Positions 46,099-60,634 of a stretch of 64,000 nt of DNA are shown here, piece by piece. The stretch is from a virus (lineage: Duplodnaviria > Heunggongvirae > Uroviricota > Caudoviricetes): IMG/VR virus record IMGVR_UViG_3300042691_025398, positions 55,814-119,813 of that record; one strand, given 5' to 3'. The notes beneath the pieces are model-generated. The model was not told the DNA's origin, searched no databases, and saw only the letters and a list, made by a program, of their open reading frames with translations. The position numbers and the translations under genes are program-made. Each line of letters opens with the position of its first letter. Position 1 is the stretch's first letter.

Positions 46099-46932
46099 CT
46101 AGCCGGAATGTCTTTTGGATCGTTTAGGTGCACTGCTATCAATATCATCAACCACACTGTCGCTCTCCTGAGTCCAGCTTATGATTTCCCACGTCCCATT
46201 GTGATGTTCAACCAAGGCTGTGCAACTTTCAACCCAGTCACCATCGTTCATATATGTAACACCGTCTATTTCTTTGATTTCAGCATGATGTATGTGTCCG
46301 CATATCACGCCGTCAAAGCCACGCTTCTTACAATATGCGGCTAGATTTCGTTCAAACTGGAATATAAAGTCTATTGCTCTTTTGACTCTATGCTTGAGGA
46401 AAAAAGAAAGGCTCCAATAGCCAAAACCAAGCCTATGGCGCAACCAATTAAATCTGCTGTTAAGGCCAAGAATGAAATCGTATGCTTTATCTCCTAATAT
46501 ACTAAGCCAAGGCGCCAGTCTTGTAATACCATCAAACAAGTCACCGTGGGTAACCAGATAATGTTTGCCATCTGCTCCAATGTGTTCGCATTGGTTGGTC
46601 ATTTCTATCATGCCAAAGTTTAGATTGTAATTTAAAAATGGTCTTAGAAATTCATCATGGTTGCCTAGAACGTAAATCACTCGAGTGTCTCGTTTGGCAT
46701 GTCCTAGTACACGGCGCACCACATTGGTATGACTCTGTTTCCAACGCCATTTGTTCTGCTTGATTTTCCAAGCATCGATGATGTCGCCCACGAGATACAA
46801 TGTTTGGCAGGAGTTGTGTTTGAGAAAATTGTTGAGTTGTTCAGCCTTGCAGTCCTTGGTACCTAGGTGAACGTCGGATATAAAAATTGTGCGATAGGTT
46901 TTCATTTTATTTTTATTTAAACACAGTAACAT
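46099..46932 (-). CDS. Calcineurin-like metallophosphoesterase (LpxH-like)
   Basis: ISDVHLG ... LVGDIIDAW ... GNHD ... GHIH motifs. Confidence 0.6.
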   Translation of the reverse strand: MLLCLNKNKMKTYRTIFISDVHLGTKDCKAEQLNNFLKHNSCQTLYLVGDIIDAWKIKQNKWRWKQSHTNVVRRVLGHAKRDTRVIYVLGNHDEFLRPFLNYNLNFGMIEMTNQCEHIGADGKHYLVTHGDLFDGITRLAPWLSILGDKAYDFILGLNSRFNWLRHRLGFGYWSLSFFLKHRVKRAIDFIFQFERNLAAYCKKRGFDGVICGHIHHAEIKEIDGVTYMNDGDWVESCTALVEHHNGTWEIISWTQESDSVVDDIDSSAPKRSKRHSG

Positions 46933-46965
46933 TACAATCCTATTACAATTTTGAAAATATTTTCA

Positions 46966-47290
46966 TGAAAAAGCCCGCCGAAGCGGGCTTACTATTTTGG
47001 GTGACAAGGCATAGTTGCCTCGGAGGTTAGGCTGCTAGAGCGAAAACCTCGTCGTTAGCTGCGTTTGCAGTTACTATTTTGCTTGGATTACGTCCATCGC
47101 CTTTCGTGTTGCCTTCTCTACTATCTCACCCTGTCGAAACCTTGACTGGCCCATCAAAAGCATACTTGGAAGATTTATTAACCGCTGACTCTTACTCTTC
47201 CCCAGCGTCACTATAGTATGCTTTTGGTGGACCAGGCGGGAGTCGAACCCGCGTCCAGAATGCCTTCGCTTTGAAGGAATTACAACAATA
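46966..47290 (-). ncRNA. ssrA: Circularly permuted (two-piece) tmRNA
   Basis: The tRNA-like 3' end GGACGCGGGTTCGACTCCCGCCTGGTCCACCA (reverse complement of 47225-47260) lies upstream of the coding piece. The coding piece starts GGGCCAGTCAAGGTTTCGACAGGG at about 47153 and carries the tag reading frame ..GCAAACGCAGCTAACGACGAGGTTTTCGCTCTAGCAGCCTAA (ANAANDEVFALAA*). A terminator hairpin lies at 46968-46990. The 5' boundary is approximate. Confidence 0.7.
46968..46990 (-). terminator. Rho-independent terminator of tmRNA
   Basis: aagcccgcttcggcgggctt hairpin plus U-run on the minus strand. Confidence 0.6.
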
Positions 47291-47648
47291 CTTGAATTTT
47301 ACATTTATTTTTGCAGCATGTCAAATTACTCAACCTAGTATTAATCTTCATCTATTTTATGATGGTAAGTTTCATACCATAGTGCAAATAACACACCAAG
47401 CAAGCATCCCGTAAATATGGATCCTAAAAGAACTCCAATGATAAAATACAATTGTTCTGTGCCCATTGTTATTTTTCTACCAATCTTTGTTCACAACGAG
47501 CTTGAATTTTATCTTCTCTGTGATGAATCAATACTGGCAGTATTTCTTCACATTCTTCTCTGCGAGCAAAAGATTTCCAATCACGCCATTCGCCATCTGC
47601 TGCTACTAAAACAACAAGAACCCAGACGTATGATCCCACATAAGTTTC

Positions 47649-48233
47649 CTAAAATGCTGCGTGTATTCTTGCTAGTATTGTGTCCACCACTTGACTACTC
47701 AACACCACTTCATAATGATTAAAAGGCAGCTCAAGTAATTCTATATCTGATCTTTGACGCATGCTTTTGATAGTGACCACGCCATCATTTGGTTCTTTGA
47801 TCCAGGGACTTTCACCCGCTGTGGTTACTATTTGCGTCCAGTTTTTTGGCGAAGCAATTTGTCTAGCGTCTACCATGGGCATGCTCATGGTACCAATATC
47901 TTTCATTAACCTATTAAACGGTAAAAAATATTTAGCAAAATCTGCTTGTTCGCTGCCACCATAAGGTGTGCTTAGACTTACGCCGCCTCGTGTGGTTTCT
48001 TTATAGTAGTCTGCTAGATATAAACTGTAGATGCCACCCAGGCTGTGGCTGATAAAGAACAAACGTTCTGCATCATCAAGACGGCCCTTCATTAGGGCTA
48101 GATTGTTGTCAAAGCCGTTGTCACTGCGGTACTCAAGCATGATGTCAGGTTCCTCAAATTCATCCCTGACAAATTGCCTTATGAAGCTGAAGCTTTCAGC
48201 TGTGGCACTGGCTCCGTGTATGTAAACAATCAT
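47649..48233 (-). CDS. Alpha/beta-hydrolase (lipase/esterase-like)
   Basis: GxSxG nucleophile elbow ISHSLGG. 194 aa. Confidence 0.55.
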   Translation of the reverse strand: MIVYIHGASATAESFSFIRQFVRDEFEEPDIMLEYRSDNGFDNNLALMKGRLDDAERLFFISHSLGGIYSLYLADYYKETTRGGVSLSTPYGGSEQADFAKYFLPFNRLMKDIGTMSMPMVDARQIASPKNWTQIVTTAGESPWIKEPNDGVVTIKSMRQRSDIELLELPFNHYEVVLSSQVVDTILARIHAAF

Positions 48234-48236
48234 GAC

Positions 48237-48464
48237 TCACTTGGCACCTTTATTGTTATTGGAGTTGGTGTTGTTTTTTTCCAGTTCTTCTTTGGCATAG
48301 TAACGCATGCTGGTTTCATCATAGGGGTTGATACGCCAGCCCCAGGATTTCCAATATTTTGAAATCAGGTTATTGATTATAAGAACAGCGCCAACAAGCA
48401 CTATACTGCTGATAGCCAGCAGTATTGAAGAAGCTAAAAAAACAGCAGTTTGATCCATGTTCAT
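48237..48464 (-). CDS. Small membrane protein
   Basis: 75 aa with one hydrophobic helix. Confidence 0.3.
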   Translation of the reverse strand: MNMDQTAVFLASSILLAISSIVLVGAVLIINNLISKYWKSWGWRINPYDETSMRYYAKEELEKNNTNSNNNKGAK

Positions 48465-48622
48465 CTGGTTATGCCTTTTGTGAATAATTTATTTAAGAGA
48501 AAAGTATGATATTATCTGTCGTTACGCAACACAATCCAGGCGATTATTTTACATGTAAAATAACCACCCACTGCTGTGATCAAGAGTGCTATTGGGCCTT
48601 TGAAAATAGATACCAATTCCAT

Positions 48623-49093
48623 TCAATATTTAATCTCGGGCAGGCTGTACAACACAAAGTTGTGCACCACCGGATTGTATCTAATCTTGAACACACAAAC
48701 ACCTGGTTCGTCTAGGTATCCATAAGTGCGTTTTACGCCACCGGACTTCAAACGATACACAGAATAATGATCTAAATCCGCCAAAGGCTCGTTATCCAAT
48801 TCCACACGTTCCACTATCACAGCACTTTCATGATCTGATCTTTCAAGAATTTCTATTCCAATCTGTGAGATTGATCTGGGGTCATGTTCAAAATCAAAAC
48901 GTTCTGTGTCTATGTTGACTTTTTCTCGATAGACATAGTCTCCGAGAATCAACCATTTGACGTTCTCGGGGGTGCCCTTATATTTTACGTAAAACGAAAG
49001 TTTTTGCAAGTTTTTTGGCTTGGACATATTGATCATAAACCTCTTGTTGTTCACGCAACATGCGCTCGGCCTCTTGGCCATCTCTATCACCAA
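48623..49093 (-). CDS. Hypothetical protein (start uncertain because it overlaps the upstream gene)
   Basis: 156 aa ORF. Overlaps the end of the B12-radical-SAM gene by about 115 nt, so an internal start is likely. Confidence 0.3.
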   Translation of the reverse strand: MVIEMAKRPSACCVNNKRFMINMSKPKNLQKLSFYVKYKGTPENVKWLILGDYVYREKVNIDTERFDFEHDPRSISQIGIEILERSDHESAVIVERVELDNEPLADLDHYSVYRLKSGGVKRTYGYLDEPGVCVFKIRYNPVVHNFVLYSLPEIKY

Positions 49094-50525
49094 AGCCCAA
49101 TTCGTGCTGTAGCTCTAGAAATCTTTTATATCTATTGAATCGAGTTTGATAGTTGTTGTCTGGATTGGTTGGAGTGTTCCAAAAGATATGACTCCATCCC
49201 TTGACCACATGCTCTCGCTCAAATTGATAATGATCACGCAGTCGATCGTCATTGGTCAGTGGCACTTGATCGCCTAGAGTGAACGGACTGGATATGCTCA
49301 CACTCAACAGTCCATCATGTGCCCAATGCCGATATCGGCGCAGTAGATCCAGTGTTTGTTCAAAATCTTGTTCAGTCTCCATGGGATAGCCGGCCATGAA
49401 CAACCAAATTTGCTTTATACCATTGTCATGTAACTGATGTGCAGTATAATCAATGTCAGCGTTGCTGAATTTTTTACGCATGTCATAGCGCACACGCTCG
49501 CTTCCGCTCTCAACTCCAATTATCCATTCCTGACATCCAGCTTCAGCCGCAAGAGCAAAATCTCTAGGCGGTTGATTTTCTCGTCCGCGAAAGATAGCGT
49601 AGCCACTGTAACGCAAGGTTCTTGGCAAATGATCAGCCAGATATTGATTCATTTTACGATAGTTTGGTATACTACCGTTTATCAAGTTACCGCTGAATCT
49701 AAAAAAGTCAATGCCTGTGCGTTCATGGCTTGCAATCATCTCTTTGGCCAGCAGTTCTCCGTCTTTGAATATGTACTTGGGCCATAGATGTTCCACATCG
49801 CAAAATGTACAGCGACGTACACAACCTTTGCTGTCAGTGATCAAGAGATACCTGTCACCAGGATTGAATCTTTGGTAAAGATCAAAATCATAATTGTGCC
49901 AGTCTGGAATAGGCACTGCATTGAGATCCGCGGAAGTCTGCGGAGGTGAATCAACCAGTCCATACATGTCCTGTTTAATCACATCAATGATAAAGCTTTC
50001 AGCATCGCCTGTAACCGCACAGTCAATCATGCCGCGTTCTACCAACCAACGAGCTCTTGAACCTGTGGCGTGTGTATCACCGGTGTACTCACCTTGAGTC
50101 AAGATTTCTAGACCACGGCCACCTGCTAGAATCTTCACACCAGGCAACCAACGTCTAATGCTATAACACATGAGTGTGAGATAGGTTTCACTCATGACAC
50201 TGAACACACTTAGACCAATCACTTCTGGATCAAACCGATCTCGGATGGCCAGCAGTTGTTTACGGTTCCATTTTAAAATGTCTATGAGTACTCTTCTTGG
50301 CAGCTTGCGTTCATTGCTGGGACCTTGACTGATATAAAACAGCAGTTCAGGCCAGTATGGTTTATCAATAAATTCCGCAGTGAATTCTGCCGCAAGGTCT
50401 ACTGGCACAGCAGCAATGCCTGCTTGATTAAGACAGGAACTGAGCAGTGCAGGAGCAGTGGCTGGCCAACCCGGAGTCTGATATGGCAAGCTGACTATTA
50501 CAATGTGTCGCTTGTCACTGGTCAT
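48978..50525 (-). CDS. Cobalamin-binding-domain radical SAM enzyme (class B-like)
   Basis: N-terminal Rossmann-like B12-binding region (HIVIVSLPYQ...) and radical SAM CX3CX2C (GCVRRCTFCDV). 515 aa. Confidence 0.6.
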   Translation of the reverse strand: MTSDKRHIVIVSLPYQTPGWPATAPALLSSCLNQAGIAAVPVDLAAEFTAEFIDKPYWPELLFYISQGPSNERKLPRRVLIDILKWNRKQLLAIRDRFDPEVIGLSVFSVMSETYLTLMCYSIRRWLPGVKILAGGRGLEILTQGEYTGDTHATGSRARWLVERGMIDCAVTGDAESFIIDVIKQDMYGLVDSPPQTSADLNAVPIPDWHNYDFDLYQRFNPGDRYLLITDSKGCVRRCTFCDVEHLWPKYIFKDGELLAKEMIASHERTGIDFFRFSGNLINGSIPNYRKMNQYLADHLPRTLRYSGYAIFRGRENQPPRDFALAAEAGCQEWIIGVESGSERVRYDMRKKFSNADIDYTAHQLHDNGIKQIWLFMAGYPMETEQDFEQTLDLLRRYRHWAHDGLLSVSISSPFTLGDQVPLTNDDRLRDHYQFEREHVVKGWSHIFWNTPTNPDNNYQTRFNRYKRFLELQHELGFGDRDGQEAERMLREQQEVYDQYVQAKKLAKTFVLRKI

Positions 50526-51468
50526 GGTTTAAATGGTAAACTAATGTGTAAAAATCAAAAACATTGCCTTCGGTTGTGGCAGCGAAAGGAGACTGTAAAC
50601 GAGTCAAGTGATGTTTGCGTAGTGAGTAATCAAAGTCCTGCATCACAGCATCAAACCAAGCCTGATTCGGGCAGCCCACTCTGATTAGTGTGTCTGTAGC
50701 ATGATAGGCTTTCCAAGACACCTGTGTGTTTTCCTGCCACCAATAAACCAGAGGATCCAAACTATGCACAATGTTTTGCGGGCACCAGTTTTGTATGATT
50801 ACAGCAGTTGGACGATGGTGCGTGACTGCTCTCATGATACCATAATGATCAGTAACAATGTTCATGATTGCTGGCAGTATCACAGTGTCAATGTCCGTAC
50901 ATAATTGTTGAGTGTGTGATAGGTCATTGATATCACTTTTTATAGTTTGAAAACGCTTTTTATCCGGATCAATTAGAGAACACATTTCCTGCGCTATACC
51001 CAATCCAGATTCTTTAACATCTGTCAAGGTCACCCACGATGCTCCGTGGTGCAAGCACAGCGCACCAAACAATCCTATGTGTGTGGCAAAATCAATCACT
51101 GACTTGTTCTGTATTGCATCAAGATTATCTAGAATTGCTAATTGTAATCTCGTACGGTCAAAATCGTCCAGCTGCCAAGTACTATCACTTTCAAATTGAT
51201 CAAACGGAATATCTAGATCCAACCAATGATCCGCGCTGAAGTTATGCATGGTCATGCATTCTTGTTTGATAAAATCTGGCAGCAGATCAAAGTCTTTGGG
51301 TTGGTTGCAATCGGGCCAAGATTGGTCACGTATGTTTGCATAACTGCGCTGCCAACTTAGAATATTACGTTGGTCATACACAGGATCTTTGCCCACATTA
51401 TTGCGTTCTAACAAATAGGCTTTGCGAGCTGCGTATTCGTAGATTTTCAAATCAAACATATTTTGCAT
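50515..51468 (-). CDS. Class I SAM-dependent methyltransferase-like protein
   Basis: Motif I-like VIDFATHIGLFGA followed by an acidic residue (LTDV). Translationally coupled to the B12-radical-SAM gene. Confidence 0.45.
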   Translation of the reverse strand: MQNMFDLKIYEYAARKAYLLERNNVGKDPVYDQRNILSWQRSYANIRDQSWPDCNQPKDFDLLPDFIKQECMTMHNFSADHWLDLDIPFDQFESDSTWQLDDFDRTRLQLAILDNLDAIQNKSVIDFATHIGLFGALCLHHGASWVTLTDVKESGLGIAQEMCSLIDPDKKRFQTIKSDINDLSHTQQLCTDIDTVILPAIMNIVTDHYGIMRAVTHHRPTAVIIQNWCPQNIVHSLDPLVYWWQENTQVSWKAYHATDTLIRVGCPNQAWFDAVMQDFDYSLRKHHLTRLQSPFAATTEGNVFDFYTLVYHLNHDQ

Positions 51469-51508
51469 GTGGACTATTTACTGTACCACATGCGCAGATA
51501 GAAATTTG

Positions 51509-51832
51509 CTATCGGCCAGCAGAATGTGGTTTAAGATCTTGTCCCACCTGCACTAGACAGAACTGCTCGTCGTTCCACTTTTCAATTAAACTGTAGGATC
51601 CGGTATTTTTATTAGCAAACAAAATTGACTGCACCATGACTTCTTGATTGTCTATCCTACGCAAAGCAGTCATCTGCAACATGGGTTGCTCATGATAACT
51701 GGATAACATGGCATTTATAGAGTCCCAATTTGAACAATTGGTCAAAGTTGTCACAGTGAAAATTTCTTGTGCCTGCACAGATAGAGCCGCAAACAGTACC
51801 GCCGCGCCTAGGATTTTCATGATGGGTTCCAA
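51509..51832 (-). CDS. Small secreted protein
   Basis: Signal peptide MKILGAAVLFAALSVQA. Confidence 0.35.
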   Translation of the reverse strand: MEPIMKILGAAVLFAALSVQAQEIFTVTTLTNCSNWDSINAMLSSYHEQPMLQMTALRRIDNQEVMVQSILFANKNTGSYSLIEKWNDEQFCLVQVGQDLKPHSAGR

Positions 51833-51889
51833 AATTATATTTATAGGTACCCAAGAAAAAAGGCTGTGTCACTAAGGACACAGCCCGGT

Positions 51890-52453
51890 TCAACTTACAC
51901 CATGATTTCCATTTTGAAAACCCACTGACCCACCTTCTGCTTCTATACGTTTGATCACATCTTCAAACAGGATAGGGGCAAAGTCTGTTTGTTCTACGCA
52001 GACGCAATGATATCTAACGTCAACTGCACCATCTTTCATAACTCTGTTAGCATGAAGATGACCGTGTATGTTGGTACCAAAGCGACCCAGACTTTCTTCG
52101 TGTATGGGAATATGACTTAGTATCATTCCGTTCATAACATGGTATGCACGTAGTTCACGGAAGTGCTCTCTATATTCTGTGTCACGAAAGATATCGTGGT
52201 TACCACGTATCAGCACCTTGTCGCCGTTTAAACGAGAAAGTGTGGACAGAGCTCTGCGGTTGATAACAACATCACCTAGGTGATAGACTTTGTCGTTAGG
52301 CCGAACACGTTCGTTCCAAGCCTTGACCATAAACTCGTCCATCTCCTCGGGGTCGTCCCAAGGTCGCAGTTTTGTCACACCATCGTTGCGCATGAAGCGG
52401 CAAACGCCAGCGTGACCAAAATGCGTGTCACTGACTAAAAACACTGCTGGCAT
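51890..52453 (-). CDS. Calcineurin-like metallophosphoesterase
   Basis: FLVSDTHFGH ... HLGDV ... GNHD motifs. Confidence 0.65.
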   Translation of the reverse strand: MPAVFLVSDTHFGHAGVCRFMRNDGVTKLRPWDDPEEMDEFMVKAWNERVRPNDKVYHLGDVVINRRALSTLSRLNGDKVLIRGNHDIFRDTEYREHFRELRAYHVMNGMILSHIPIHEESLGRFGTNIHGHLHANRVMKDGAVDVRYHCVCVEQTDFAPILFEDVIKRIEAEGGSVGFQNGNHGVS

Positions 52454-52471
52454 CTGGTTCTCCTTGTAATA

Positions 52472-52897
52472 TTATGCTACTGACAATTCAGTAGCTGGGT
52501 AAGTAATCTTACCTTCGTACTCCAATTGACTACGTTCAAACTCAGTTAGGTAATCATCTGCTACTACTTCCCAACCAATAGCAGTCTCACGGAAGTAATC
52601 GTTGTCGCACTCGATCTTGGGTTTGACTTCTGCTAGTATCTTAAGAGCATTCTGGAAGTCAGCCTCGGTCTTCCATGAAATGTTCTTGACCACGTAGTCG
52701 TTGCCACCTTTGGCCTTCCAGTAGGCGTCATCGCCCTTGCCGATAGTGCCGTCTTCGCGCCATGCGTAGTTTTCGTAGACTTGGGTTGTAATCAGCAGTT
52801 TAGACATTGTCGACTCCTTGTTATTCACTATACTTGTATTATATAGAATTGAGAATAATTGGTCAACCAAAAAAGTTGCTAGAATTGCAATTAGCAA
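52472..52897 (-). CDS. Hypothetical protein
   Basis: 141 aa. Confidence 0.3.
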   Translation of the reverse strand: MLIAILATFLVDQLFSILYNTSIVNNKESTMSKLLITTQVYENYAWREDGTIGKGDDAYWKAKGGNDYVVKNISWKTEADFQNALKILAEVKPKIECDNDYFRETAIGWEVVADDYLTEFERSQLEYEGKITYPATELSVA

Positions 52898-52908
52898 ATC
52901 TGCAACAA

Positions 52909-53322
52909 TCAGTTGTCAAGCGTCAGAGCTTGCAGCATGCGGTTCTTGACCAAGAGATTGGGCGCTCTATATCCTTCAGTATCTTGAAAGCCCATGATCA
53001 CGCCAACTTCGCAAACAGCTCCACTGCGACAAACTCCAGCATGACAGTGCACAATCACGTTCATGCTTTGATCCAAGGCATGCTTCAAAAGTTTTACCAA
53101 CTGATTGGCCTGAAGCTCGCTGCATCGCCACTCCTCGTTGATGCTGTAATCATTGGCTTCGATGTCAAGAAAACAAAACTGATGTGTTTCACGAAACTGA
53201 TACTTGGGCGTTGGGAATTCCACTCCAGGATCCACGATTTGAATCAACATGCTGTTTATGCCAGCATCGTAGTGCCAACCTTGTTGAATTTCCTTTAATG
53301 ATATGTTTTGAATCCAGGGCAT
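52909..53322 (-). CDS. Dual-specificity/tyrosine protein phosphatase (CX5R)
   Basis: VIVHCHAGVCRSGA P-loop. Confidence 0.75.
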   Translation of the reverse strand: MPWIQNISLKEIQQGWHYDAGINSMLIQIVDPGVEFPTPKYQFRETHQFCFLDIEANDYSINEEWRCSELQANQLVKLLKHALDQSMNVIVHCHAGVCRSGAVCEVGVIMGFQDTEGYRAPNLLVKNRMLQALTLDN

Positions 53323-53547
53323 GACGCTTCCTTAAAATAATGAAATTCACGAGCAGTGATTAAAAAAAATCTGCATATGATCTTGGTTATCTGTTGTTAT
53401 AATCTTGATACATACTAGTGCAGTATGTTAATTTTAATCAAGGAGAACTAACATGGCATGGACTACACCAGCAGCTCAAGATATGCGTTTTGGTTTTGAA
53501 ATCACAATGTACATCGCAAATCGTTAATATTGAAAATGTAAAAAAGA

Positions 53548-53572
53548 AAGCCCGCACCGTGCGGGCTTTTTT
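53548..53572. terminator. Bidirectional terminator at the distal end of the tRNA array
   Basis: gcccgcaccgtgcgggc hairpin flanked by A-runs and T-runs. Confidence 0.55.
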
Positions 53573-53574
53573 AT

Positions 53575-53652
53575 TGGTACCCCCTCTCCGATTCGAACGG
53601 AGAAAACTGCTCCTTTTGAGAGAGCCGACTTTACCAATTTGTCCAAGGGGGC
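53575..53652 (-). tRNA. tRNA, anticodon CAA but short variable arm (atypical), CCA encoded
   Basis: Cloverleaf. Acceptor GCCCCCT/AGGGGGT. Anticodon stem GCTCT/GGAGC. Loop CTCAAAA. T-loop TTCGAAT. Confidence 0.55.
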
Positions 53653-53654
53653 AT

Positions 53655-53733
53655 TGGTCTCTCTGGCTGGATTCGAACCAGCGATCTCTGGTCCCCCAGA
53701 CCAGCACTCTAGACCAGACTGAGCCACAGAGAG
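53655..53733 (-). tRNA. tRNA-Pro (GGG)
   Basis: Anticodon stem CTGGT/ACCAG. Loop CTGGGGG. T-loop TTCGAAT. CCA encoded. Confidence 0.6.
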
Positions 53734-53734
53734 A

Positions 53735-54109
53735 TTAACGTAAACATCTAGCTCGTGCTTCGATCATGTGATCAACATTGCCTTTAACCACTACATTGGT
53801 ATAGGTATCAACAGTGCCACTAGCATGATCATACACTCGGTTATCCACTGCATGATAGGTACGCACACGTTCGTCACTGGCACGATAGCGTTCGGTGTCT
53901 TTGTGAAAGTGCCGCTCTACTCTAGCGCGACACACTGCTAGCGCATTTTTTCGATTGTCTTCTCTGCTGCGACTAGCAGTGCCATTGGCCTGTATGCCTG
54001 TGGGTTCATGGATACAACGGCAACAATTCTGATGTTTGTTTCGATGTTGACCACCACCACCGGTGCTGGAGAACCATTCAAATCTAAATTGGTCTTCTGT
54101 GATTTTCAT
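53735..54109 (-). CDS. arfB: ArfB-like peptidyl-tRNA hydrolase (GGQ motif, RF-1 domain protein)
   Basis: FSSTGGGGQHRNKHQNCCRCIHEPTGIQANG...SRSREDNRKNA parallels the release-factor/ArfB GGQ catalytic loop (GPGGQHVNKT..AVRLTH.PTGI...ERSQ..N). Basic C-terminal tail. Start trimmed to the internal Met MKITEDQF. The ORF track extends to 54211. Confidence 0.65.
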   Translation of the reverse strand: MKITEDQFRFEWFSSTGGGGQHRNKHQNCCRCIHEPTGIQANGTASRSREDNRKNALAVCRARVERHFHKDTERYRASDERVRTYHAVDNRVYDHASGTVDTYTNVVVKGNVDHMIEARARCLR

Positions 54110-54384
54110 TATAGATTCCTCATGCTCAACAGCAGTGCAGTTAAGTATTTTTCTTCTCGAAATGCAATAAAATGTCTGTGATCTTTCTTGGGCATGGTGT
54201 ACCATCCCCATACAGGATTTTGTATTCTATCCTGATTCCAGATAGACCAACCTTCGCCATGCTCCCAATATAATTTGTGACGCAGCTCTACAGATTTTAT
54301 CACTTCCCAACGCCAGGTTAATGCATAGATTAATCCTGCACGACCCAATTGATATCTTTTGTCTAGCTTGATAATCTTCATCAC
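54109..54384 (-). CDS. Hypothetical protein
   Basis: 91 aa. Its stop overlaps the arfB-like start. Confidence 0.3.
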   Translation of the reverse strand: MMKIIKLDKRYQLGRAGLIYALTWRWEVIKSVELRHKLYWEHGEGWSIWNQDRIQNPVWGWYTMPKKDHRHFIAFREEKYLTALLLSMRNL

Positions 54385-54395
54385 TTCCTCTATCT

Positions 54396-54480
54396 TGGTG
54401 CGACTAGCCGGAATCGAACCAGCACGACCGAAGTCGGGAGATTTTAAGTCTCCTGTGTCTACCTATTTCACCATAGTCGC
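54396..54480 (-). tRNA. tRNA-Leu (UAA), type II
   Basis: Anticodon loop CTTAAAA. Long variable arm. CCA encoded. Confidence 0.7.
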
Positions 54481-54485
54481 ATGTT

Positions 54486-54562
54486 TGGTGCGCCAGAGGG
54501 GAGTCGAACCCCTAAAATCCAGTTTCTAAGACTGACACGTATACCAGTTCCGTCACCGGCGC
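54486..54562 (-). tRNA. tRNA with anticodon UAG and short variable arm (atypical)
   Basis: Anticodon stem TCAGT/ACTGG. Loop CTTAGAA. T-arm AGGGG-TTCGACT-CCCCT. CCA encoded. Confidence 0.55.
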
Positions 54563-54568
54563 AATGTT

Positions 54569-54644
54569 TGGTGCCAACTCCCGGGATCGAACCAGGTTCC
54601 ATGCGTCTTCAGCGCACCGCAATGACCACATTTGCTAAGTTGGC
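54569..54644 (-). tRNA. tRNA-Phe (GAA)
   Basis: Loop CTGAAGA. T-loop TTCGATC. CCA encoded. Confidence 0.65.
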
Positions 54645-54645
54645 T

Positions 54646-54720
54646 TGGTGCATCGTGAGAGGGTTGAACTCCCGACCTTGGCCTTGTAAGGGCCCTGCTC
54701 TACCACTGAGCTAACGATGC
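54646..54720 (-). tRNA. tRNA-Val (UAC)
   Basis: Loop CTTACAA. Acceptor GCATCGT/ACGATGC. CCA encoded. Confidence 0.6.
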
Positions 54721-54724
54721 AGAA

Positions 54725-54958
54725 TTATTTCCAAGTGAGCACAAACAAACAACGATCTTTATCCCATTTGAATGCAACACCTAGATGATAGTATTCACCA
54801 CTATCGTTCCATGCCCATGAAGCATGATGTGAACCAACATGACGCTCTAGCCAGGACTGCACAAGATCTACACCTTGTATCCAATCCAGCTGAGGTAAAG
54901 AAGCAGTTGGCCACGGTATAGTGGCAGTATAGACAAAAGCATGTCGATCAACCAGCAT
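54725..54958 (-). CDS. Hypothetical small protein
   Basis: 77 aa ORF between tRNAs. Confidence 0.3.
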   Translation of the reverse strand: MLVDRHAFVYTATIPWPTASLPQLDWIQGVDLVQSWLERHVGSHHASWAWNDSGEYYHLGVAFKWDKDRCLFVLTWK

Positions 54959-54970
54959 GCTTGTATTTAA

Positions 54971-55049
54971 TGGTCTCGAAGGTGGGATTCGAACTCACGA
55001 TCTCCTGCTCCCAAAGCAGGCGCTTTAAGCCAGACTAAGCTACTCCGAG
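54971..55049 (-). tRNA. tRNA-Pro (UGG)
   Basis: Anticodon stem CCTGC/GCAGG. Loop TTTGGGA. Confidence 0.6.
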
Positions 55050-55132
55050 ATTAACTGTTTTGATGTATGTGATACAGAAATAAAAATACCATTACGATAA
55101 CTATGATTGCCCCATGATAGTTCTCCTTGTAT

Positions 55133-55207
55133 TGGTAGGGGATGAGGGACTCGAACCCCCGCATGGCGGAATCAAAATCCGCTGCCTTACCAACTTGGCG
55201 AATCCCC
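55133..55207 (-). tRNA. tRNA-Gln (UUG)
   Basis: Stem GCGGA/TCCGC. Loop TTTTGAT. Confidence 0.65.
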
Positions 55208-55215
55208 AACTGCTC

Positions 55216-55290
55216 TGGCCCGACCGGCAGGAATCGAACCCACATTCTGGAGGTAGAAGCTCCATGTCCTATCCATTGAACGACGGTCGG
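55216..55290 (-). tRNA. tRNA-Arg (UCU)
   Basis: Stem TGGAG/CTCCA. Loop CTTCTAC. Confidence 0.65.
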
Positions 55291-55364
55291 TTAAATCGAG
55301 AAGTCTTGACCTTGTGTTAAACATGATTCAGTGGCCTAACAACAGCGGGACAAGACATATTACT

Positions 55365-55440
55365 TGGAGCGGGTGAACAGGTTCGAACTGTCGACATTCT
55401 GCTTGGAAGGCAGACGCTCTACCAACTGAGCTACACCCGC
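55365..55440 (-). tRNA. tRNA-Gly (UCC)
   Basis: Stem TCTGC/GCAGA. Loop CTTCCAA. Confidence 0.65.
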
Positions 55441-55447
55441 ATTACTC

Positions 55448-55522
55448 TGGAGCGGATAGTCAGGTTCGAACTGACGACCTACACGTTGGCAACGTGTCGC
55501 ACTACCACTGTGCTATATCCGC
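55448..55522 (-). tRNA. tRNA-Gly (GCC)
   Basis: Stem ACACG/CGTGT. Loop TTGCCAA. Confidence 0.65.
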
Positions 55523-55528
55523 TTATAT

Positions 55529-55996
55529 CTACAATGCACCATTGGCTATTCGGTCTGCTGCATAACTTGCAGCAAATGCCCGAGGTTTCACCAAGGGAAT
55601 CACATTACATGTGCCACGAATGTAACCAATAGCTTGACTGATCACACAGCTAGAACCATGCTCTTCATTGGGGTTGATATCCAAGTGCACTTCTACTGGA
55701 AAGTCTCCCATGATTGGTGCTAGACGTTGAAACATGTCACTCACACGATACACTTCATTCATCAATCGCATGGCTGGCTTACTGGCCTTTTGATCGTAAT
55801 CGCGTTCCTTGGTGATTTCACCAAAGATTTTACAACCATTGTTGCCATTCACATGCACTACCACTGCCACGGTGTATTCTGCAAACCATACACCTTTTTC
55901 TCTAAATCGCACACTGTCTGCGCCAAGATAAACTTTTGTACCCGGACCGCAGTTGTCGATATATTGTTTTACTTCATGTAAGTTTATCTTAGGCAT
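55529..55996 (-). CDS. Hypothetical protein within the tRNA array
   Basis: 155 aa ORF. No confident motif. Confidence 0.35.
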   Translation of the reverse strand: MPKINLHEVKQYIDNCGPGTKVYLGADSVRFREKGVWFAEYTVAVVVHVNGNNGCKIFGEITKERDYDQKASKPAMRLMNEVYRVSDMFQRLAPIMGDFPVEVHLDINPNEEHGSSCVISQAIGYIRGTCNVIPLVKPRAFAASYAADRIANGAL

Positions 55997-56003
55997 TGTT
56001 TCC

Positions 56004-56078
56004 TCTCTTGGTTGGCCGGTCCGGAGAGATTCGAACTCCCGACAGCTGGTTTCGAAGACCAGAACTCTTCCGCTGAGC
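56004..56078 (-). tRNA. tRNA-Arg (UCG)
   Basis: Stem CTGGT/ACCAG. Loop CTTCGAA. Confidence 0.65.
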
Positions 56079-56085
56079 TACGGAC

Positions 56086-56173
56086 CGAATTTTTTGGCGG
56101 AGAGTATAGGATTCGAACCTATGCGCCCATTTCTGAACGACAGTTTAGCAAACTGCTGCCTTAACCACTCGGC
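56086..56173 (-). tRNA. tRNA-Ser (GCU), type II
   Basis: Loop TTGCTAA. Long variable arm. Confidence 0.65.
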
Positions 56174-56219
56174 CAACTCTCCATTTGTTTTATTTTACTA
56201 CGATGATCATTATTGATCA

Positions 56220-56293
56220 AGAATTACTTGGTGCCCCCTGACAGAATCGAACTGCCAATCCCGGGTTACAAAGCCGGTGTTATACCATTTAAC
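56220..56293 (-). tRNA. tRNA-Thr (UGU)
   Basis: Loop TTTGTAA. Confidence 0.55.
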
Positions 56294-56299
56294 TAAGGG

Positions 56300-56389
56300 G
56301 GCAAAAACTGGCGGAAGCGGTGAGATTCGAACTCACGGAGCATTTCTACTCGTCTGTTTTCAAGACAGGTGCAATCAACCGGACTCTGC
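56300..56389 (-). tRNA. tRNA-Ser (UGA), type II
   Basis: Loop CTTGAAA. Long variable arm. Confidence 0.6.
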
Positions 56390-56398
56390 CACACTTCC

Positions 56399-56605
56399 TT
56401 AACTGGGAATTATTTTTGGAATATAGGGTACATTGCGCGGCCCATGCCGCTGTTCGAATAACTGTCGTGCTTCGGTTAGATCTCGAGCATACACTCGATC
56501 TTTTACTTCACCTTGCGGTGTTCTTACTGTGGTTTCATACATTGGCATCATAATCTCCTTTGGTGCTGATGGTGGGGATTGAACCCACGGCTTCCGCCTT
56601 ACCAA
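56399..56605 (-). CDS. Hypothetical small protein
   Basis: 68 aa ORF between tRNAs. Confidence 0.3.
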   Translation of the reverse strand: MVRRKPWVQSPPSAPKEIMMPMYETTVRTPQGEVKDRVYARDLTEARQLFEQRHGPRNVPYIPKIIPS

Positions 56606-56635
56606 GGCGGTACTCTACCACTGAGTTACATCAGC
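56561..56635 (-). tRNA. tRNA-Thr (GGU)
   Basis: Stem CCGCC/GGCGG. Loop TTGGTAA. Confidence 0.65.
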
Positions 56636-56636
56636 A

Positions 56637-56711
56637 TGGTGGTGATAATTGGTAATGATCCAATCTCCTCGCCTTATGAAGGCGGTGCGCATCCATCTAC
56701 GCCATATCACC
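56637..56711 (-). tRNA. tRNA-Met/Ile2 (CAU)
   Basis: Loop TTCATAA. Unusual T-loop ATCATTA. Confidence 0.5.
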
Positions 56712-56717
56712 AGAATT

Positions 56718-56792
56718 TGGTAGCGAGTAGTGGGATTGAACCACTGACCAATGCGTTATCAACACACTGCTCTTCCGCTGAGCTAACTCGCC
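56718..56792 (-). tRNA. tRNA-Ile (GAU)
   Basis: Loop TTGATAA. Confidence 0.6.
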
Positions 56793-56794
56793 AT

Positions 56795-56868
56795 TGGCGC
56801 CGGAGGAGGGAATCGAACCCCCACTAACGGTTTTGGAGACCGCCGCACTGCCATTATACTACTCCGAC
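56795..56868 (-). tRNA. tRNA-Trp (CCA)
   Basis: Stem GCGGT/ACCGT. Loop CTCCAAA. Confidence 0.6.
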
Positions 56869-56884
56869 TTTAAACTATGTTAAT

Positions 56885-56962
56885 TGGAGCATCGGGCTGG
56901 ATTCGAACCAGCGAATCGAAGGTTTTGCAGACCCCGCCATTAGGCCTCTCTGGTACCGATGC
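56885..56962 (-). tRNA. tRNA-Cys (GCA) (tentative)
   Basis: Loop CTGCAAA. T-loop TTCGAAT. Confidence 0.5.
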
Positions 56963-56965
56963 ATG

Positions 56966-57259
56966 TTAATCTTCTTCGTCGTCAAACTCACCTGAGTTAT
57001 GACAATAGCCTTTCAATGTACCTACGAGCATTTCTCGATCTGTGATTACAAACACATTGTATTCACTCCGACGAAAAGGTTTCATTTTAGGAGGTGGTCG
57101 ACGACTATCTGTATCATAAGGCAAAGGTTCAACTTTGACATTACCTGAATCTTCGTATGTCTGTGCCACACGCCCTATGATAATTCTATTGTTATGACAG
57201 GTCAATACAGTGGAACCTGTTTGAATAGTTGTTCCTAAAATGTCTTTTAAGCCTGTCAC
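56966..57259 (-). CDS. Hypothetical protein
   Basis: 97 aa. Confidence 0.3.
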   Translation of the reverse strand: MTGLKDILGTTIQTGSTVLTCHNNRIIIGRVAQTYEDSGNVKVEPLPYDTDSRRPPPKMKPFRRSEYNVFVITDREMLVGTLKGYCHNSGEFDDEED

Positions 57260-57287
57260 AAAACCTCCATTAAAGTTTTGGTTATGT

Positions 57288-57363
57288 TGGGGTGACTGAA
57301 GGGAGTCGAACCCTCACTGTACGGAATCACAATCCGGGGCACTACCATTATGCTACAGTCACC
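57288..57363 (-). tRNA. tRNA-His (GUG)
   Basis: Loop TTGTGAT. Extra 5' G(-1). C73 discriminator. Confidence 0.65.
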
Positions 57364-57364
57364 A

Positions 57365-57629
57365 TCAAATTTTGTCAAGTGGAATTTCTTTCACTGGACT
57401 GTCAATTTTGCTCTCTACTACAAAGACATCAAACATTGTGTCATCTTCTGGATGACATATTTCTTCTAAAAAAGTTTCATTAAACTTTGTACGCCAGTGT
57501 AGAAATTTCTGTTTGTCAGCATCCCACCTGGCCACACTGGCATTGCGACATCTTCCTGCATAATATGCACCATGCTCAAGTTCAGACTTGGCAATTTTAG
57601 AAGTGTAATTGTATGGACTATGAATCATA
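57365..57629 (-). CDS. Hypothetical protein (trimmed so it does not overlap tRNA-Ala)
   Basis: The ORF track extends to 57832, through the tRNA at 57645-57720. The internal start MIHSPYNY avoids the overlap. Confidence 0.3.
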
Positions 57630-57644
57630 ACATTTCCTTGTAAG

Positions 57645-57720
57645 TGGTGGAGGTTATCGGACTCGAACCGATCACCCTCTGCTTGCAAAGCAGATGCTCT
57701 CCCAGATGAGCTAAACCCCC
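57645..57720 (-). tRNA. tRNA-Ala (UGC)
   Basis: Loop TTTGCAA. G3:U70 identity pair in the acceptor GGGGGTT/AACCTCC. Confidence 0.7.
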
Positions 57721-58211
57721 GTTTGAATAATTGTACGCAATTGATCAAGACTTTGATCAACATCACCATGGTGTAATATACCATGACCTCCGGCTGCCTG
57801 CCATTGCTCGATGTTGCTGCGACGGTCATCAATCAAGATATCACCAGGCCGAGCCCAAAGCTGTTTGTCATGACTGTAAGGACCAAACCAGATGGGTATG
57901 TCACCAAAATGTCTTTGCTTCCATGTGACCTTGTCCTGGAATGCCCAGGGAAAATCATTGTCTTGTGGCACAGCAGTTAAGAATCTAACATCTCGGTTGG
58001 TTTGATCTGCAAGATCCAACACTGTGGCTACCAAGCGCCTGGCATCAGGCATTAGTGGCAAGTCACGATAAAATCTTGGAAAGGCACGTAACTTGATCCA
58101 GTCATGATCCGGCCAACGTTCATTGGCCGAATGACTGCGTCCAATAATCTTTGATGCTTCTGCATCAAAGTCGGCTACCACACCATCCATGTCTAGATAG
58201 ATTGTTTGCAT
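57711..58211 (-). CDS. HAD-superfamily 5'(3')-nucleotidase-like hydrolase
   Basis: IYLDMDGVVADF motif I. 166 aa. The 3' end overlaps the tRNA-Ala 5' end by about 10 nt. Confidence 0.5.
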   Translation of the reverse strand: MQTIYLDMDGVVADFDAEASKIIGRSHSANERWPDHDWIKLRAFPRFYRDLPLMPDARRLVATVLDLADQTNRDVRFLTAVPQDNDFPWAFQDKVTWKQRHFGDIPIWFGPYSHDKQLWARPGDILIDDRRSNIEQWQAAGGHGILHHGDVDQSLDQLRTIIQTGV

Positions 58212-58225
58212 ACTTTCCTTTTGAT

Positions 58226-58301
58226 TGGCTCCAGCGGTTGGGATCGAACCAACGACAAACGGATTAACAGTCCGCTGCTTCTACCTCTGAGCTACGCTGG
58301 A
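58226..58301 (-). tRNA. tRNA-Asn (GUU)
   Basis: Loop CTGTTAA. Confidence 0.65.
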
Positions 58302-58308
58302 ATTGATT

Positions 58309-58401
58309 TGGTGGGTGTCCACGGATTCGAACCGCGAATGTTTACCACGAGGGACCGGATTTACAGTCCGGTGTAGCACACGCCATAGCTACAAGACACC
58401 C
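58309..58401 (-). tRNA. tRNA-Tyr (GUA), type II
   Basis: Loop CTGTAAA. Long variable arm. Confidence 0.65.
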
Positions 58402-58406
58402 AAATA

Positions 58407-58772
58407 TTATTTTTTCATTGCTTCCATGTCGGCCAGCAAGCTGGCCCACTGAATCTCTGGATTTGCACCTTTATCGAATCCATGCAAGGCCACAAGAGTT
58501 TGATCTGCACCTTCTGGTACTTTGAAATAGATGCTGGCATAGGTACAGTCAAAGTCGTCGTCTGTGTCATGTGAATACCAGGGATGACTTGTTACCCATG
58601 CAGGAAAATAATCTTCCCGATTGCCGCCACCATTGCGGGTGTAAACTACAATGTAGCCATCTTCCATGTAGACATTTCTAAAACGACCAAAATCCGCACG
58701 AGTGGCGCCAAGAATTTCCAATAAACGATCAGTGTCTGGGTTCATACCGAACACAGTGTTGTACAAGCTCAT
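58407..58772 (-). CDS. Hypothetical protein
   Basis: 121 aa. Confidence 0.3.
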   Translation of the reverse strand: MSLYNTVFGMNPDTDRLLEILGATRADFGRFRNVYMEDGYIVVYTRNGGGNREDYFPAWVTSHPWYSHDTDDDFDCTYASIYFKVPEGADQTLVALHGFDKGANPEIQWASLLADMEAMKK

Positions 58773-58790
58773 GTTGCCTCCAGATTGCTG

Positions 58791-59204
58791 TTATTTGAGA
58801 TCTTTGGAATCCACACAGGTGCCGCCTTTGAACACATAGATATCTGAGTCTATGCGGATTTGTTCAAACACGTGATTGTTCACACAAATATATGGATCTT
58901 TGTAATTTTGAGTCCAAGAATACACTCCAAAACCTATACCAGCCAGCACCATGAGTATGGGAATATACTTTAGATACTTTACTATTTCTGGCATCGCACT
59001 CAGTATTTGAGGCAGATTTTTGAGCAATTCTTTCATGCTCTTATTTACTACTTTTGGCGGTCCCAAGGGGTAACGATCCCCTTCTTTCAGCGTGACAGGC
59101 TGATGTGCGTCCATGAACACTTTGGAACCTGTGTCTGGTGCTCTGCGTCCCGCGGCGGTAATTATAGTCTGTAGTAACACCCACCGACCCTCCACCCGCT
59201 CCAC
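58791..59204 (-). CDS. Hypothetical membrane protein (start uncertain)
   Basis: 137 aa. A hydrophobic segment. The 5' part lies in a GC-rich spacer that may be non-coding. Confidence 0.3.
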   Translation of the reverse strand: MERVEGRWVLLQTIITAAGRRAPDTGSKVFMDAHQPVTLKEGDRYPLGPPKVVNKSMKELLKNLPQILSAMPEIVKYLKYIPILMVLAGIGFGVYSWTQNYKDPYICVNNHVFEQIRIDSDIYVFKGGTCVDSKDLK

Positions 59205-59318
59205 AACCGGGACCGTTCTCGCATTGCCAGCGCACTTTCGGTTTGAAGTGTACCACCCGTGCTTGTCAAGGCACTTCTCATCCTCCGGGTCAGAGTATCC
59301 AGTGACGCTGGAACGTTT

Positions 59319-59394
59319 GGTACACCGTACGGGATTCGAACCCGTCTTTACGCCTTGAAAGGGCGTTGTCCTAACCGGATAGACGAACGGTGCA
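59319..59394 (-). tRNA. tRNA-Glu (UUC)
   Basis: Stem ACGCC/GGCGT. Loop CTTTCAA. Confidence 0.65.
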
Positions 59395-59701
59395 TAAAAT
59401 TAATGCTAACAAGGAACTGACTGTTACATGATGCCGAAGTCATGGTCGCATCAAACCCTTGCTGAACCCTTGAGGGACGATCCGCATTTGATCGTTTTAT
59501 TCTAAATTTTGAATCAGCCACTTGTTTTCCACTCAAGCCCTGAAACTGAGTTGTTACCCTGTCCATCCCTTTTATTCTCTGTCTGTGTGCAGAGGGATAC
59601 TGCCTATCAGATTCTGGGTTACCCCGCTAACGGTTTTCTGCCACCGGACCTCTATCGCTAGTCAAACGCTACTTTTAGGAGAGTAGTAACCGGAACTGGT
59701 T

Positions 59702-59773
59702 GCGGGAAACAGGAATCGAACCTGATGTCTTTGGCTTATGAGACCAACGAGTAAACCGTTTCTCCCTCCCGCC
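59702..59773 (-). tRNA. tRNA-like gene with CAU anticodon (Met/Ile2-like, atypical D-arm)
   Basis: Acceptor GCGGGAG/TTCCCGC. Anticodon stem TTGGT/GCCAA. Loop CTCATAA. T-loop TTCGATT. D-arm irregular. Confidence 0.45.
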
Positions 59774-59824
59774 ATTGTTTTGCAATATTTCTAGTGTAAC
59801 AAAAAGAATTTTATTGGTCAACCA

Positions 59825-59897
59825 TATAAAAACACACTATCCTAGATAACCTCTTTGGGACGGACCTTAACCGTTCAAAATGTGTTTTTATATGGTG
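59825..59897. repeat. Long-stem hairpin element, copy 1 (CCATATAAAAACACAC ... GTGTTTTTATATGG)
   Basis: 14-bp inverted arms flank about 44 nt. The right arm abuts the CCA end of tRNA-Lys. Confidence 0.6.
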
Positions 59898-59969
59898 GGG
59901 CCACTGAGATTCGAACTCAGGCCTGACGGATTAAAAGTCCGCTGTCTTAACCGCTTGACTATAGCCCCA
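59894..59969 (-). tRNA. tRNA-Lys (UUU)
   Basis: Stem GCGGA/TCCGT. Loop CTTTTAA. Confidence 0.65.
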
Positions 59970-60009
59970 TTATCTTATCACTCTTGTCACTGTCCATGAT
60001 GGACTCTCC

Positions 60010-60562: not shown

Positions 60563-60634
60563 TTACCTAGCATATTTTCTCTCTGCGACTTCGGGTGATC
60601 ACTCCCTAGCCGGCAACCATTGCCATTACAGCCC

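Follow-up and report, generated by a model that had tools for sequence, protein, structure and literature searches.

Leucine tRNA genes without the long variable arm in a phage tRNA array belong to families that are widespread in phages

This work concerns a pair of transfer RNA (tRNA) genes with the leucine anticodons CAA and UAG, carried by the tailed-phage record IMGVR_UViG_3300042691_025398 of IMG/VR; the window that we analysed is the stretch of 64,000 nucleotides from positions 55,814 to 119,813 of that record. An earlier note, made from the letters of the window alone, had pointed out that both genes fold into type I cloverleaves with a short variable arm, although bacterial tRNA-Leu is type II, and that a normal type II tRNA-Leu(UAA) lies alongside. 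This observation is confirmed, far beyond chance. In our assessment, to which we attach a probability of about 0.85, both genes encode functional phage leucine isoacceptors in which the variable arm has been cut to a loop of 5-6 nt and which can be charged by the host leucyl-tRNA synthetase (LeuRS).

Two short-looped leucine tRNAs and their families

ARAGORN returned both short genes with exactly the coordinates, anticodons and anticodon loops (CTCAAAA and CTTAGAA) proposed from hand folding, and it also returned the type II tRNA-Leu(UAA), whose 13-nt variable arm is made up of a 4-bp stem and a UUCG loop (Table 1). When 1.4 kb was searched with the Rfam model RF00005 (gathering score 29), tRNA-Leu(CAA) scored 50.2 bits, tRNA-Leu(UAG) 57.5 bits and tRNA-Leu(UAA) 56.4 bits, with E-values from 2e-9 to 4e-11. 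Neither ARAGORN nor Rfam assigned another anticodon to the two short genes or called either of them a pseudogene. The minimum-energy folds obtained with ViennaRNA were the ARAGORN cloverleaves or close to them; their z-scores were weak (-1.2 to -2.0), as is usual for tRNAs, and are not used as evidence.

It can be seen from the ARAGORN structures that both short tRNAs have a 7-bp acceptor stem, a 5-bp anticodon stem, a 5-bp T stem and a T loop that reads UUCGAAU or UUCGACU. tRNA-Leu(CAA), which has a G1.U72 pair, carries a D stem of 3 bp (GAC/GUC) closed by an 11-nt D loop (AAAUUGGUAAA), the anticodon loop CUCAAAA, a 6-nt variable loop (AGUUUU) and the discriminator base A73. The corresponding parts of tRNA-Leu(UAG) are a 3-bp D stem (ACG/CGU), an 11-nt D loop (GAACUGGUAUA), the anticodon loop CUUAGAA, a 5-nt variable loop (AUUUU) and, again, A73. 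This D-arm architecture is common to the two short tRNAs and to tRNA-Leu(UAA) (GUG AAAUAGGUAGA CAC), which also has A73. Both short tRNAs have a leucine anticodon with a suited position 37 context: the CAA loop contains A36-A37-A38, as in UUR-reading tRNA-Leu, and the UAG loop has A37 and not G37, a feature also of most phage type II tRNA-Leu(UAG). Both genes adjoin other tRNAs or a terminator, and there is therefore no room for a hidden variable arm. The terminator-like hairpin begins 5 nt past the CCA of tRNA-Leu(CAA), which therefore closes the tRNA transcription unit.

The window tRNA-Leu(UAG), with its AUUUU variable loop and G26, fits exactly the signature that defines a UAG family (77 nt with CCA, D arm RYGGAAYUGGYAUACRU, G26, 5-nt variable loop RUUYU and A73). 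An exact-signature scan found this family in at least 120 IMG/VR contigs, and gave 6 matches in 185,579 species genomes. Five of the six cellular matches lie in dense tRNA arrays, on small contigs of metagenome-assembled genomes (MAGs) or both, and the sixth, from Marinicella, is a tRNA-Leu standing alone in a scaffold of 499 kb; the cellular matches point to mobile or phage-derived tRNA arrays. tRNA-Leu(CAA) does not fit the UAG-family signature and is a member of a second family, which was scanned for with the D arm GACAAAUUGGYAAAGUC plus the anticodon loop and was likewise found in at least 120 IMG/VR contigs. In the 102 unique sequences among the matches listed the variable region spans 5-10 nt (most often 6 nt, in 70 sequences) and never reaches 11 nt, and the family grades into members with a 10-nt mini-arm (AGUAUAAUAU). 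A blastn search with tRNA-Leu(CAA) against cultured phages gave no match, and this second arm-less family has so far been seen only in metagenomic phage contigs. We conclude that the short type is common across phages and all but missing from cellular genomes.

Covariation was assessed against the type I cloverleaf in alignments of 65 distinct UAG-family and 68 distinct CAA-family sequences. Columns set by the search patterns are not countable as conserved; the stems, A73, the T loop and the U48 of the CAA family were not set in this way. In the UAG family 99.6% of stem positions are paired and 19 of the 20 pairs have changed on both sides, the corresponding values for the CAA family being 99.8% and 15 of 20. 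Not one of 500 shuffles matched the observed pairing or covariation score in either family; the count of further pair types in the CAA family was equalled by 6 of the 500. When the partners were slid by 1-3 columns, pairing collapsed in both families. A73 is invariant in all of the aligned sequences, as are the T loop and G18G19, other invariant tRNA positions are retained in both families, and CCA is encoded in nearly all members. We conclude that both families are functional RNAs under structural selection and not pseudogenes. The earlier note had offered degenerate leucine isoacceptors as one possibility: the variable arm has indeed been lost, but the rest of the molecule is under strong purifying selection, and the tRNAs are streamlined and not decaying. 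Its other suggestion, that they are genuinely unusual tRNAs, holds against the textbook rule for bacteria but not among phages, where they are a common type.

The protein encoded by the RF-1-domain open reading frame (ORF) within the array (Table 1) provided a probe that is independent of the tRNAs. It led to 80 IMG/VR loci, on contigs of up to 374 kb, and ARAGORN was run on all of them. Among the 84 unique tRNA-Leu of these related phages the variable region is no longer than 7 nt in 28, 8-10 nt in 6 and at least 11 nt in 50, so that the lengths are bimodal and do not follow a smooth decay. By comparison, the variable regions of tRNA-Ser (45 unique) are all at least 15 nt and those of tRNA-Tyr (25 unique) all at least 12 nt. 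Arm loss in the protein-selected contigs is frequent and specific to leucine tRNAs, and every short tRNA-Leu in them has U as the last base of its variable loop. The first locus set, with 92 unique tRNA-Leu, also includes three cultured phages and the window. A73, an encoded CCA and A14-A15 are found in all 92, long or short, and the variable region always has U as its last base, so that an A15:U48 pair can form; the D arm is 16 or 17 nt in 90 of them and 18 nt in 2, and ARAGORN mostly draws it as a stem of 3 bp closed by a loop of 10 or 11 nt.

In the closest relatives of the window (loci L004-L008; for example, positions 9827-10540 of L005) the syntenic leucine slots are filled otherwise than at window positions 53575-54562. 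There, a type II-like D arm goes with a 9-nt variable region in Leu(tag), Leu(taa) is of the short type with the D arm of the UAG family, and in Leu(caa) the variable region measures 7 nt. It seems that, within the arrays of near relatives, long tRNA-Leu and short ones have been swapped or converted. Some phages (the cultured phage OSYSP and those of loci L022 and L002) carry only short tRNA-Leu.

Some further observations on these loci were made in passing. The six cellular matches to the UAG signature are L204, L207 (Aquimarina), L208 (a Leptolyngbya MAG), L205, L206 and L209; the 22-kb Leptolyngbya contig has 31 tRNAs in 2.7 kb, including a short Leu(caa) and a short Leu(taa). Loci L084-L209 contain four tRNA-Tyr calls with a variable region of 4-6 nt, the other tRNA-Tyr there having at least 11 nt; these four could be type I tRNA-Tyr of some phages, or miscalls. 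ARAGORN also made long-armed calls for other amino acids, namely 'tRNA-Ile' (90-96 nt, of which the variable region takes up 21-25 nt; one anticodon is tat) in related loci such as L205 (3805, minus strand) and L001 (2270-2358, minus strand), a 'tRNA-Asn' of 89 nt in phage 4MG and a 'tRNA-Gln' of 86 nt. Such type II bodies with anticodons other than those of Leu, Ser and Tyr may be misregistered anticodons, introns or real oddities.

Leucine identity and alternative explanations

The LeuRS of Escherichia coli is reported to need A73 and a tertiary core formed by the D and T loops, the long arm being dispensable (PMC9976931). Both window tRNAs have A73, U8:A14, A15:U48 (the Levitt pair, that is the 15:48 tertiary base pair), G18G19, A20a and U54:A58, with an 11-nt D loop on a 3-bp stem. 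They therefore carry the E. coli-type LeuRS element set, which may not be that of the host; the long variable arm of class II architecture is absent, at 6 and 5 nt. Of the identity elements singled out in the earlier note, A73 and a Leu-type D arm are present in both tRNAs and G3:U70, the determinant of alanyl-tRNA synthetase (AlaRS), is absent, positions 3:70 being C:G in tRNA-Leu(CAA) and G:C in tRNA-Leu(UAG). The features of tRNA-Ser are also lacking, as neither short tRNA has a long arm or G73.

We compared the bodies of the tRNAs, with the variable region removed and the anticodon masked, among 3,307 phage tRNAs. Type II tRNA-Leu made up 37 of the 50 nearest neighbours of tRNA-Leu(UAG) and all 50 of those of tRNA-Leu(UAA). 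For the D arm taken separately, 27 of the 40 nearest to tRNA-Leu(UAG) came from type II tRNA-Leu; the D arm closest to that of tRNA-Leu(CAA) was from a type II tRNA-Leu, and 18 of its 40 nearest were Leu. Identity between short UAG-family members and the type II tRNA-Leu(UAG) of related phages reaches 90-93%. All of the Leu anticodons are found on the UAG-type short scaffold (tag 66, taa 16, caa 14, gag 4 and aag 1), as expected of an anticodon-blind LeuRS substrate.

Cultured phages provide an experimental anchor for the UAG family. The window tRNA-Leu(UAG) matches 55 INPHARED records, from Seunavirus, T5-like, Aeromonas, Vibrio and Leptolyngbya phages, and the tRNA-Leu(UAG) of OSYSP matches 286 cultured-phage records, including BF23 and many T5-like and Felix O1-like phages. 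Judged by its sequence, the window UAG tRNA is an addition to a family long present in sequenced coliphages. The tRNAL1 of BF23 and the tRNA-Leu(UAG) of OSYSP are 100% identical over 77 nt; the BF23 GenBank record (AJ604530.1) gives CUA as the codon of tRNAL1 and states that replacing the anticodon with CUA produced an 'effective amber suppressor'. OSYSP (MF402939.1) has exactly two tRNA-Leu genes, both 77 nt with a GUUUU variable loop and both type I. According to a 2026 preprint, tRNALeu(CGA) from MF402939.1 decodes TCG as leucine in recoded E. coli. Since the OSYSP-derived tRNA inserts leucine and both OSYSP tRNA-Leu are type I, it would appear that a natural type I phage tRNA-Leu is used by E. 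coli translation, and it is very likely that such a tRNA is charged by E. coli LeuRS.

We propose that the short tRNAs were built from type II tRNA-Leu, or have long descended from it, and that A73 and the tertiary contacts listed above would have been kept for LeuRS. Neither the anticodon nor, in the case of E. coli, the long arm is read by LeuRS; the host enzyme should therefore be able to accept the short tRNAs, and we infer that it charges both with leucine. tRNA-Leu(CAA) would decode UUG and tRNA-Leu(UAG) would decode CUA and CUG, perhaps all CUN; together with the type II tRNA-Leu(UAA) they would allow the phage to cover the leucine codons itself. Across 43 long ORFs of the window TTG is the commonest leucine codon (26%) and the CTN codons together account for 59%, tRNA-Leu(UAG) is the only reader of CUN that the window phage has, and tRNA-Leu(CAA) is a dedicated tRNA for UUG; given this demand, the short tRNAs probably matter to the phage. 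They would be transcribed as the 3' end of the tRNA array, with their mature 3' ends encoded as CCA. Arm loss would be tolerated only in tRNA-Leu because seryl-tRNA synthetase (SerRS) and bacterial tyrosyl-tRNA synthetase depend on the long arm, and the default reason for it would be relaxed constraint combined with streamlining of the phage genome.

Several points weigh against functional isoacceptors charged by the host enzyme. Both short tRNAs are known as gene sequences, and the properties of the host LeuRS are borrowed from E. coli. The type I tRNA-Leu(CAA) of Streptomyces coelicolor was no substrate for the E. coli enzyme (PMC6614811), and type I tRNA-Leu is therefore not universally accepted; in Aquifex aeolicus, leucylation depends on the orientation of the arm. 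In the accessible text of the 2026 preprint the engineered tRNA-Leu(CGA) is not traced to one of the two tRNA-Leu genes of OSYSP, and the CAA family is without a member in cultured phages and so has no experimental relative. In addition, the 50 whole-body neighbours of tRNA-Leu(CAA) include 16 Thr, 16 Val and 6 Leu; this leucine signal is weak, so that the case for Leu is carried by the D arm, A73 and U48, by the anticodon and by the fact that other synthetases are excluded.

A different cause for arm loss, which we regard as unlikely, is that it is adaptive. The short arm would hide phage tRNA-Leu from a nuclease that recognises the long arm, be it a tRNase of host defence or an enzyme induced by a phage, and leucine decoding by the phage would persist while the type II tRNA-Leu of the host is destroyed; this concerns the cause of the arm loss and not the leucine charge. 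It would suit such selection that the short families are old, tightly conserved and overwhelmingly phage-borne, that the length distribution is bimodal, that some phages carry short tRNA-Leu only and that T-even infection cleaves host tRNA-Leu1; a literature search on T4-induced tRNA-Leu cleavage gave no match. Phage tRNAs have also been proposed or shown to evade host tRNases (PMC10264068 and papers on PARIS and Schlafen), and the Schlafen literature describes how type II tRNAs are selectively cleaved by human SLFN11 and SLFN14. However, the literature searched yielded no bacterial nuclease that targets the long arm of tRNA-Leu specifically, many phages (that of the window included) retain type II tRNA-Leu beside the short ones, and the arms kept by tRNA-Ser and tRNA-Tyr are a prediction of relaxed constraint alone. 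A bacterial Schlafen, considered as the type II-specific threat, found no support, as the sole characterised enzyme cleaves type I tRNAs (Lys, Ala and Met; PMC13056530). It is doubtful that arm-less tRNA-Leu would be a phage-specific class under selection that escapes a long-arm nuclease yet remains chargeable by host LeuRS; if this were true, many bacterial LeuRS would charge type I tRNA-Leu, contrary to the view that only the Streptomyces enzyme does so (PMC6614811).

The remaining alternatives question the leucine charge, the function or the fold itself. The earlier note had allowed for tRNAs of a different amino-acid identity, reading leucine codons while charged by another synthetase, with recoding or deliberate mistranslation as the outcome. 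A type I body is atypical of bacterial tRNA-Leu, and the many Thr and Val tRNAs among the neighbours of tRNA-Leu(CAA) would fit, but we consider this very improbable: G3:U70 for AlaRS and a long arm for SerRS are missing, A73 and the Leu-type D arm with A15:U48 are conserved, and the same type I scaffold is found with all of the Leu anticodons. CAA and UAG lack the anticodon bases by which most other synthetases recognise their tRNAs. Moreover, TTG and CTN are abundant ordinary codons in the window ORFs, which would make recoding very costly, and the OSYSP-derived relative inserts leucine in E. coli, going by the preprint. Marginally less probable again is that the genes are decaying, non-functional copies left after arm deletion. 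Variable regions of 8-12 nt in relatives do show that arms erode; near-perfect stem pairing with compensatory changes over 65 and 68 sequences, the invariant A73, T loop and G18G19, the CCA encoded in nearly all members, and families that persist from T5-like and Felix O1-like phages to jumbo phages all argue against decay, as does the place of the two tRNAs as the only CUN reader and the dedicated UUG tRNA. An annotation or folding artefact, in which the genes are really type II tRNAs or not tRNAs at all, has a negligible probability. Nothing was found in its favour, genes of 77 and 78 nt with CCA that adjoin tRNAs or a terminator leave no space for an arm, and ARAGORN, Infernal and ViennaRNA agree; as the two independent tools and the family covariation yield the same type I cloverleaf, the caution that these could be mis-folded calls can be set aside. 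We therefore favour functional leucine isoacceptors as the explanation for both genes.

The tRNA array and its surroundings

The features referred to in the text are collected in Table 1. The array covers all 20 amino acids, CCA is encoded in 27 of the 28 genes, and the discriminator bases fit bacterial identity rules (C73 in His; U73 in Cys and Gly; G73 in Ser, Asp, Asn and Trp). The gene without an encoded CCA is a tRNA-Met(CAT), which also has the lowest Rfam score (43 bits). There are two tRNA-Met(CAT) genes in the array and ATA makes up 24% of the Ile codons, so that one of them may in fact encode a lysidine-dependent tRNA-Ile2. An Rfam run at gathering score over 15 kb (46000-61000) listed 25 of the 28 ARAGORN tRNAs; the three left out were Leu(CAA) (53575), Tyr (58309) and Asp (59055). 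Leu(CAA) exceeded the gathering score clearly in the 1.4-kb search (see above), and these misses are therefore filter effects and not a sign of poor tRNAs.

Table 1. Leucine tRNA genes, tRNA array and neighbouring features of the window
Feature	Position	Strand	Description	Source
tRNA-Leu(CAA)	53575..53652	-	type I-like, 78 nt including encoded CCA	ARAGORN, Rfam
tRNA-Leu(UAG)	54486..54562	-	type I-like, 77 nt including encoded CCA	ARAGORN, Rfam
tRNA-Leu(UAA)	54396..54480	-	canonical type II, 85 nt	ARAGORN, Rfam
Intrinsic-terminator-like hairpin	53547..53569	-	10-bp stem, 6 G-C pairs, then T run	consensus scan
tRNA array	53575..59968	-	28 tRNA genes, small ORFs interspersed	ARAGORN, Rfam
RF-1-domain ORF	53735..54211	-	158 aa	Pfam PF00472, 57.1 bits; PHROGs
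tRNA-Met(CAT)	59701..59772	-	sole array tRNA without encoded CCA	ARAGORN, Rfam
tmRNA gene	46936..47338	-	permuted (two-piece type), beta-type	
Calcineurin-like phosphoesterase ORF	46099..46932	-	around the tRNA island	
Dual-specificity-phosphatase-like ORF	52909..53322	-	weak match, near the tRNA island	
RNaseH_like ORF	55529..55996	-	in the tRNA island	PF04308
5'-nucleotidase NT5C ORF	57711..58211	-	in the tRNA island	

The RF-1-domain ORF that served as the probe lies inside the array, between tRNA-Leu(UAA) and tRNA-Pro(GGG)/tRNA-Leu(CAA), and has homologues in at least 254 IMG/VR stretches, where it usually adjoins tRNA genes. Its product could be of the peptidyl-tRNA hydrolase or ribosome-rescue type. 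The transfer-messenger RNA (tmRNA) gene reached 163 bits with the betaproteobacterial model of tmRNA and 142 bits with the permuted one, and encodes the tag peptide ANAANDEVFALAA; this tmRNA type would perhaps indicate a betaproteobacterial host. Together, a tmRNA, the complete set of tRNAs and an RF-1-domain protein are suggestive of a module for translation support. The window is phage-like, with matches to virion proteins, GroEL, a carbamoyltransferase and an HNH endonuclease. A megablast search with 3 kb of the array against cultured phages gave isolated tRNA matches only and no close relative at the DNA level, and searches for cultured-phage relatives with GroEL and the RF-1-domain protein gave distant matches only.

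Significance and comparison with known systems

For annotation of the window, three working leucine tRNAs are predicted, two of them arm-less, and no pseudogene or recoding flag is needed. The rule that bacterial tRNA-Leu is type II fails for phage-borne tRNA-Leu, of which about one third in the jumbo-phage clade, and both in OSYSP, are type I. In the literature searches no description of type I tRNA-Leu as a class of phage tRNAs came up; records routinely label such genes tRNA-Leu, and one of them has served in experiments. Two points seem worth following. The restriction of arm loss to Leu, with Ser and Tyr keeping the arm in the protein-selected set, mirrors the known recognition rules of the synthetases, and the prediction that enterobacterial LeuRS charges natural type I tRNA-Leu is at odds with the statement made in 2019 that the Streptomyces LeuRS is the only prokaryotic one to charge both types (PMC6614811). 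The short tRNAs would also be compact, anticodon-independent leucine tRNA scaffolds, of a kind already exploited in genetic-code engineering.

The BF23/OSYSP tRNA-Leu1 (UAG) and its homologues in Felix O1-like phages (Ounavirinae) and Seunavirus (Vequintavirinae) have the same length and cloverleaf as the window tRNA-Leu(UAG). BF23/OSYSP tRNA-Leu1 shares with it a 3-bp D stem, the 11-nt loop GAAYUGGYAUA, the variable loop RUUUU, A73, CCA and the anticodon loop CUUAGAA, and 32 of the 37 unpaired positions are identical; the overall identity is only 53/77 (69%, ungapped) because the stems differ by compensated changes. Other members, among them those of 4MG and TrudiRoth, align with the window tRNA-Leu(UAG) at 80-83% over positions 8-77. 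The window tRNA-Leu(CAA) differs from BF23/OSYSP tRNA-Leu1 in having another D arm (GACAAAUUGGUAAAGUC) and a 6-nt loop. Unlike the copies borne by 4MG, BF23 and OSYSP, those described here are in a phage that is unrelated at the DNA level to any cultured phage, as judged by megablast.

Outside phages, the type I tRNA-Leu(CAA) of S. coelicolor has a 5-nt variable loop, coexists with type II tRNA-Leu and is charged by the same single LeuRS (PMC6614811). In that tRNA A73 is not an identity element and the variable loop is ACAGC (with C48) (PMC6614811), whereas the phage tRNAs keep A73 and A15:U48; recognition there depends on C74 and involves a specialised leucine-specific domain of LeuRS. E. coli LeuRS does not charge it, whereas a member of the phage UAG family works in E. 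coli. Arm-deleted constructs of E. coli tRNA-Leu (Larkin et al., 2002; Asahara et al., as covered in PMC9976931) are charged by LeuRS if A73 and the D/T-loop core are intact. The phage tRNAs have the same feature set as these constructs, yet they are natural and evolutionarily stable and have a 5-6-nt loop. The type I tRNA-Leu of animal mitochondria likewise has a short variable loop, and A73 and A14 are the determinants there; in the mitochondrial tRNAs the D and T loops are reduced and non-canonical, and the LeuRS is a dedicated one, whereas the phage tRNAs have the canonical G18G19 and a UUCGAAU or UUCGACU T loop.

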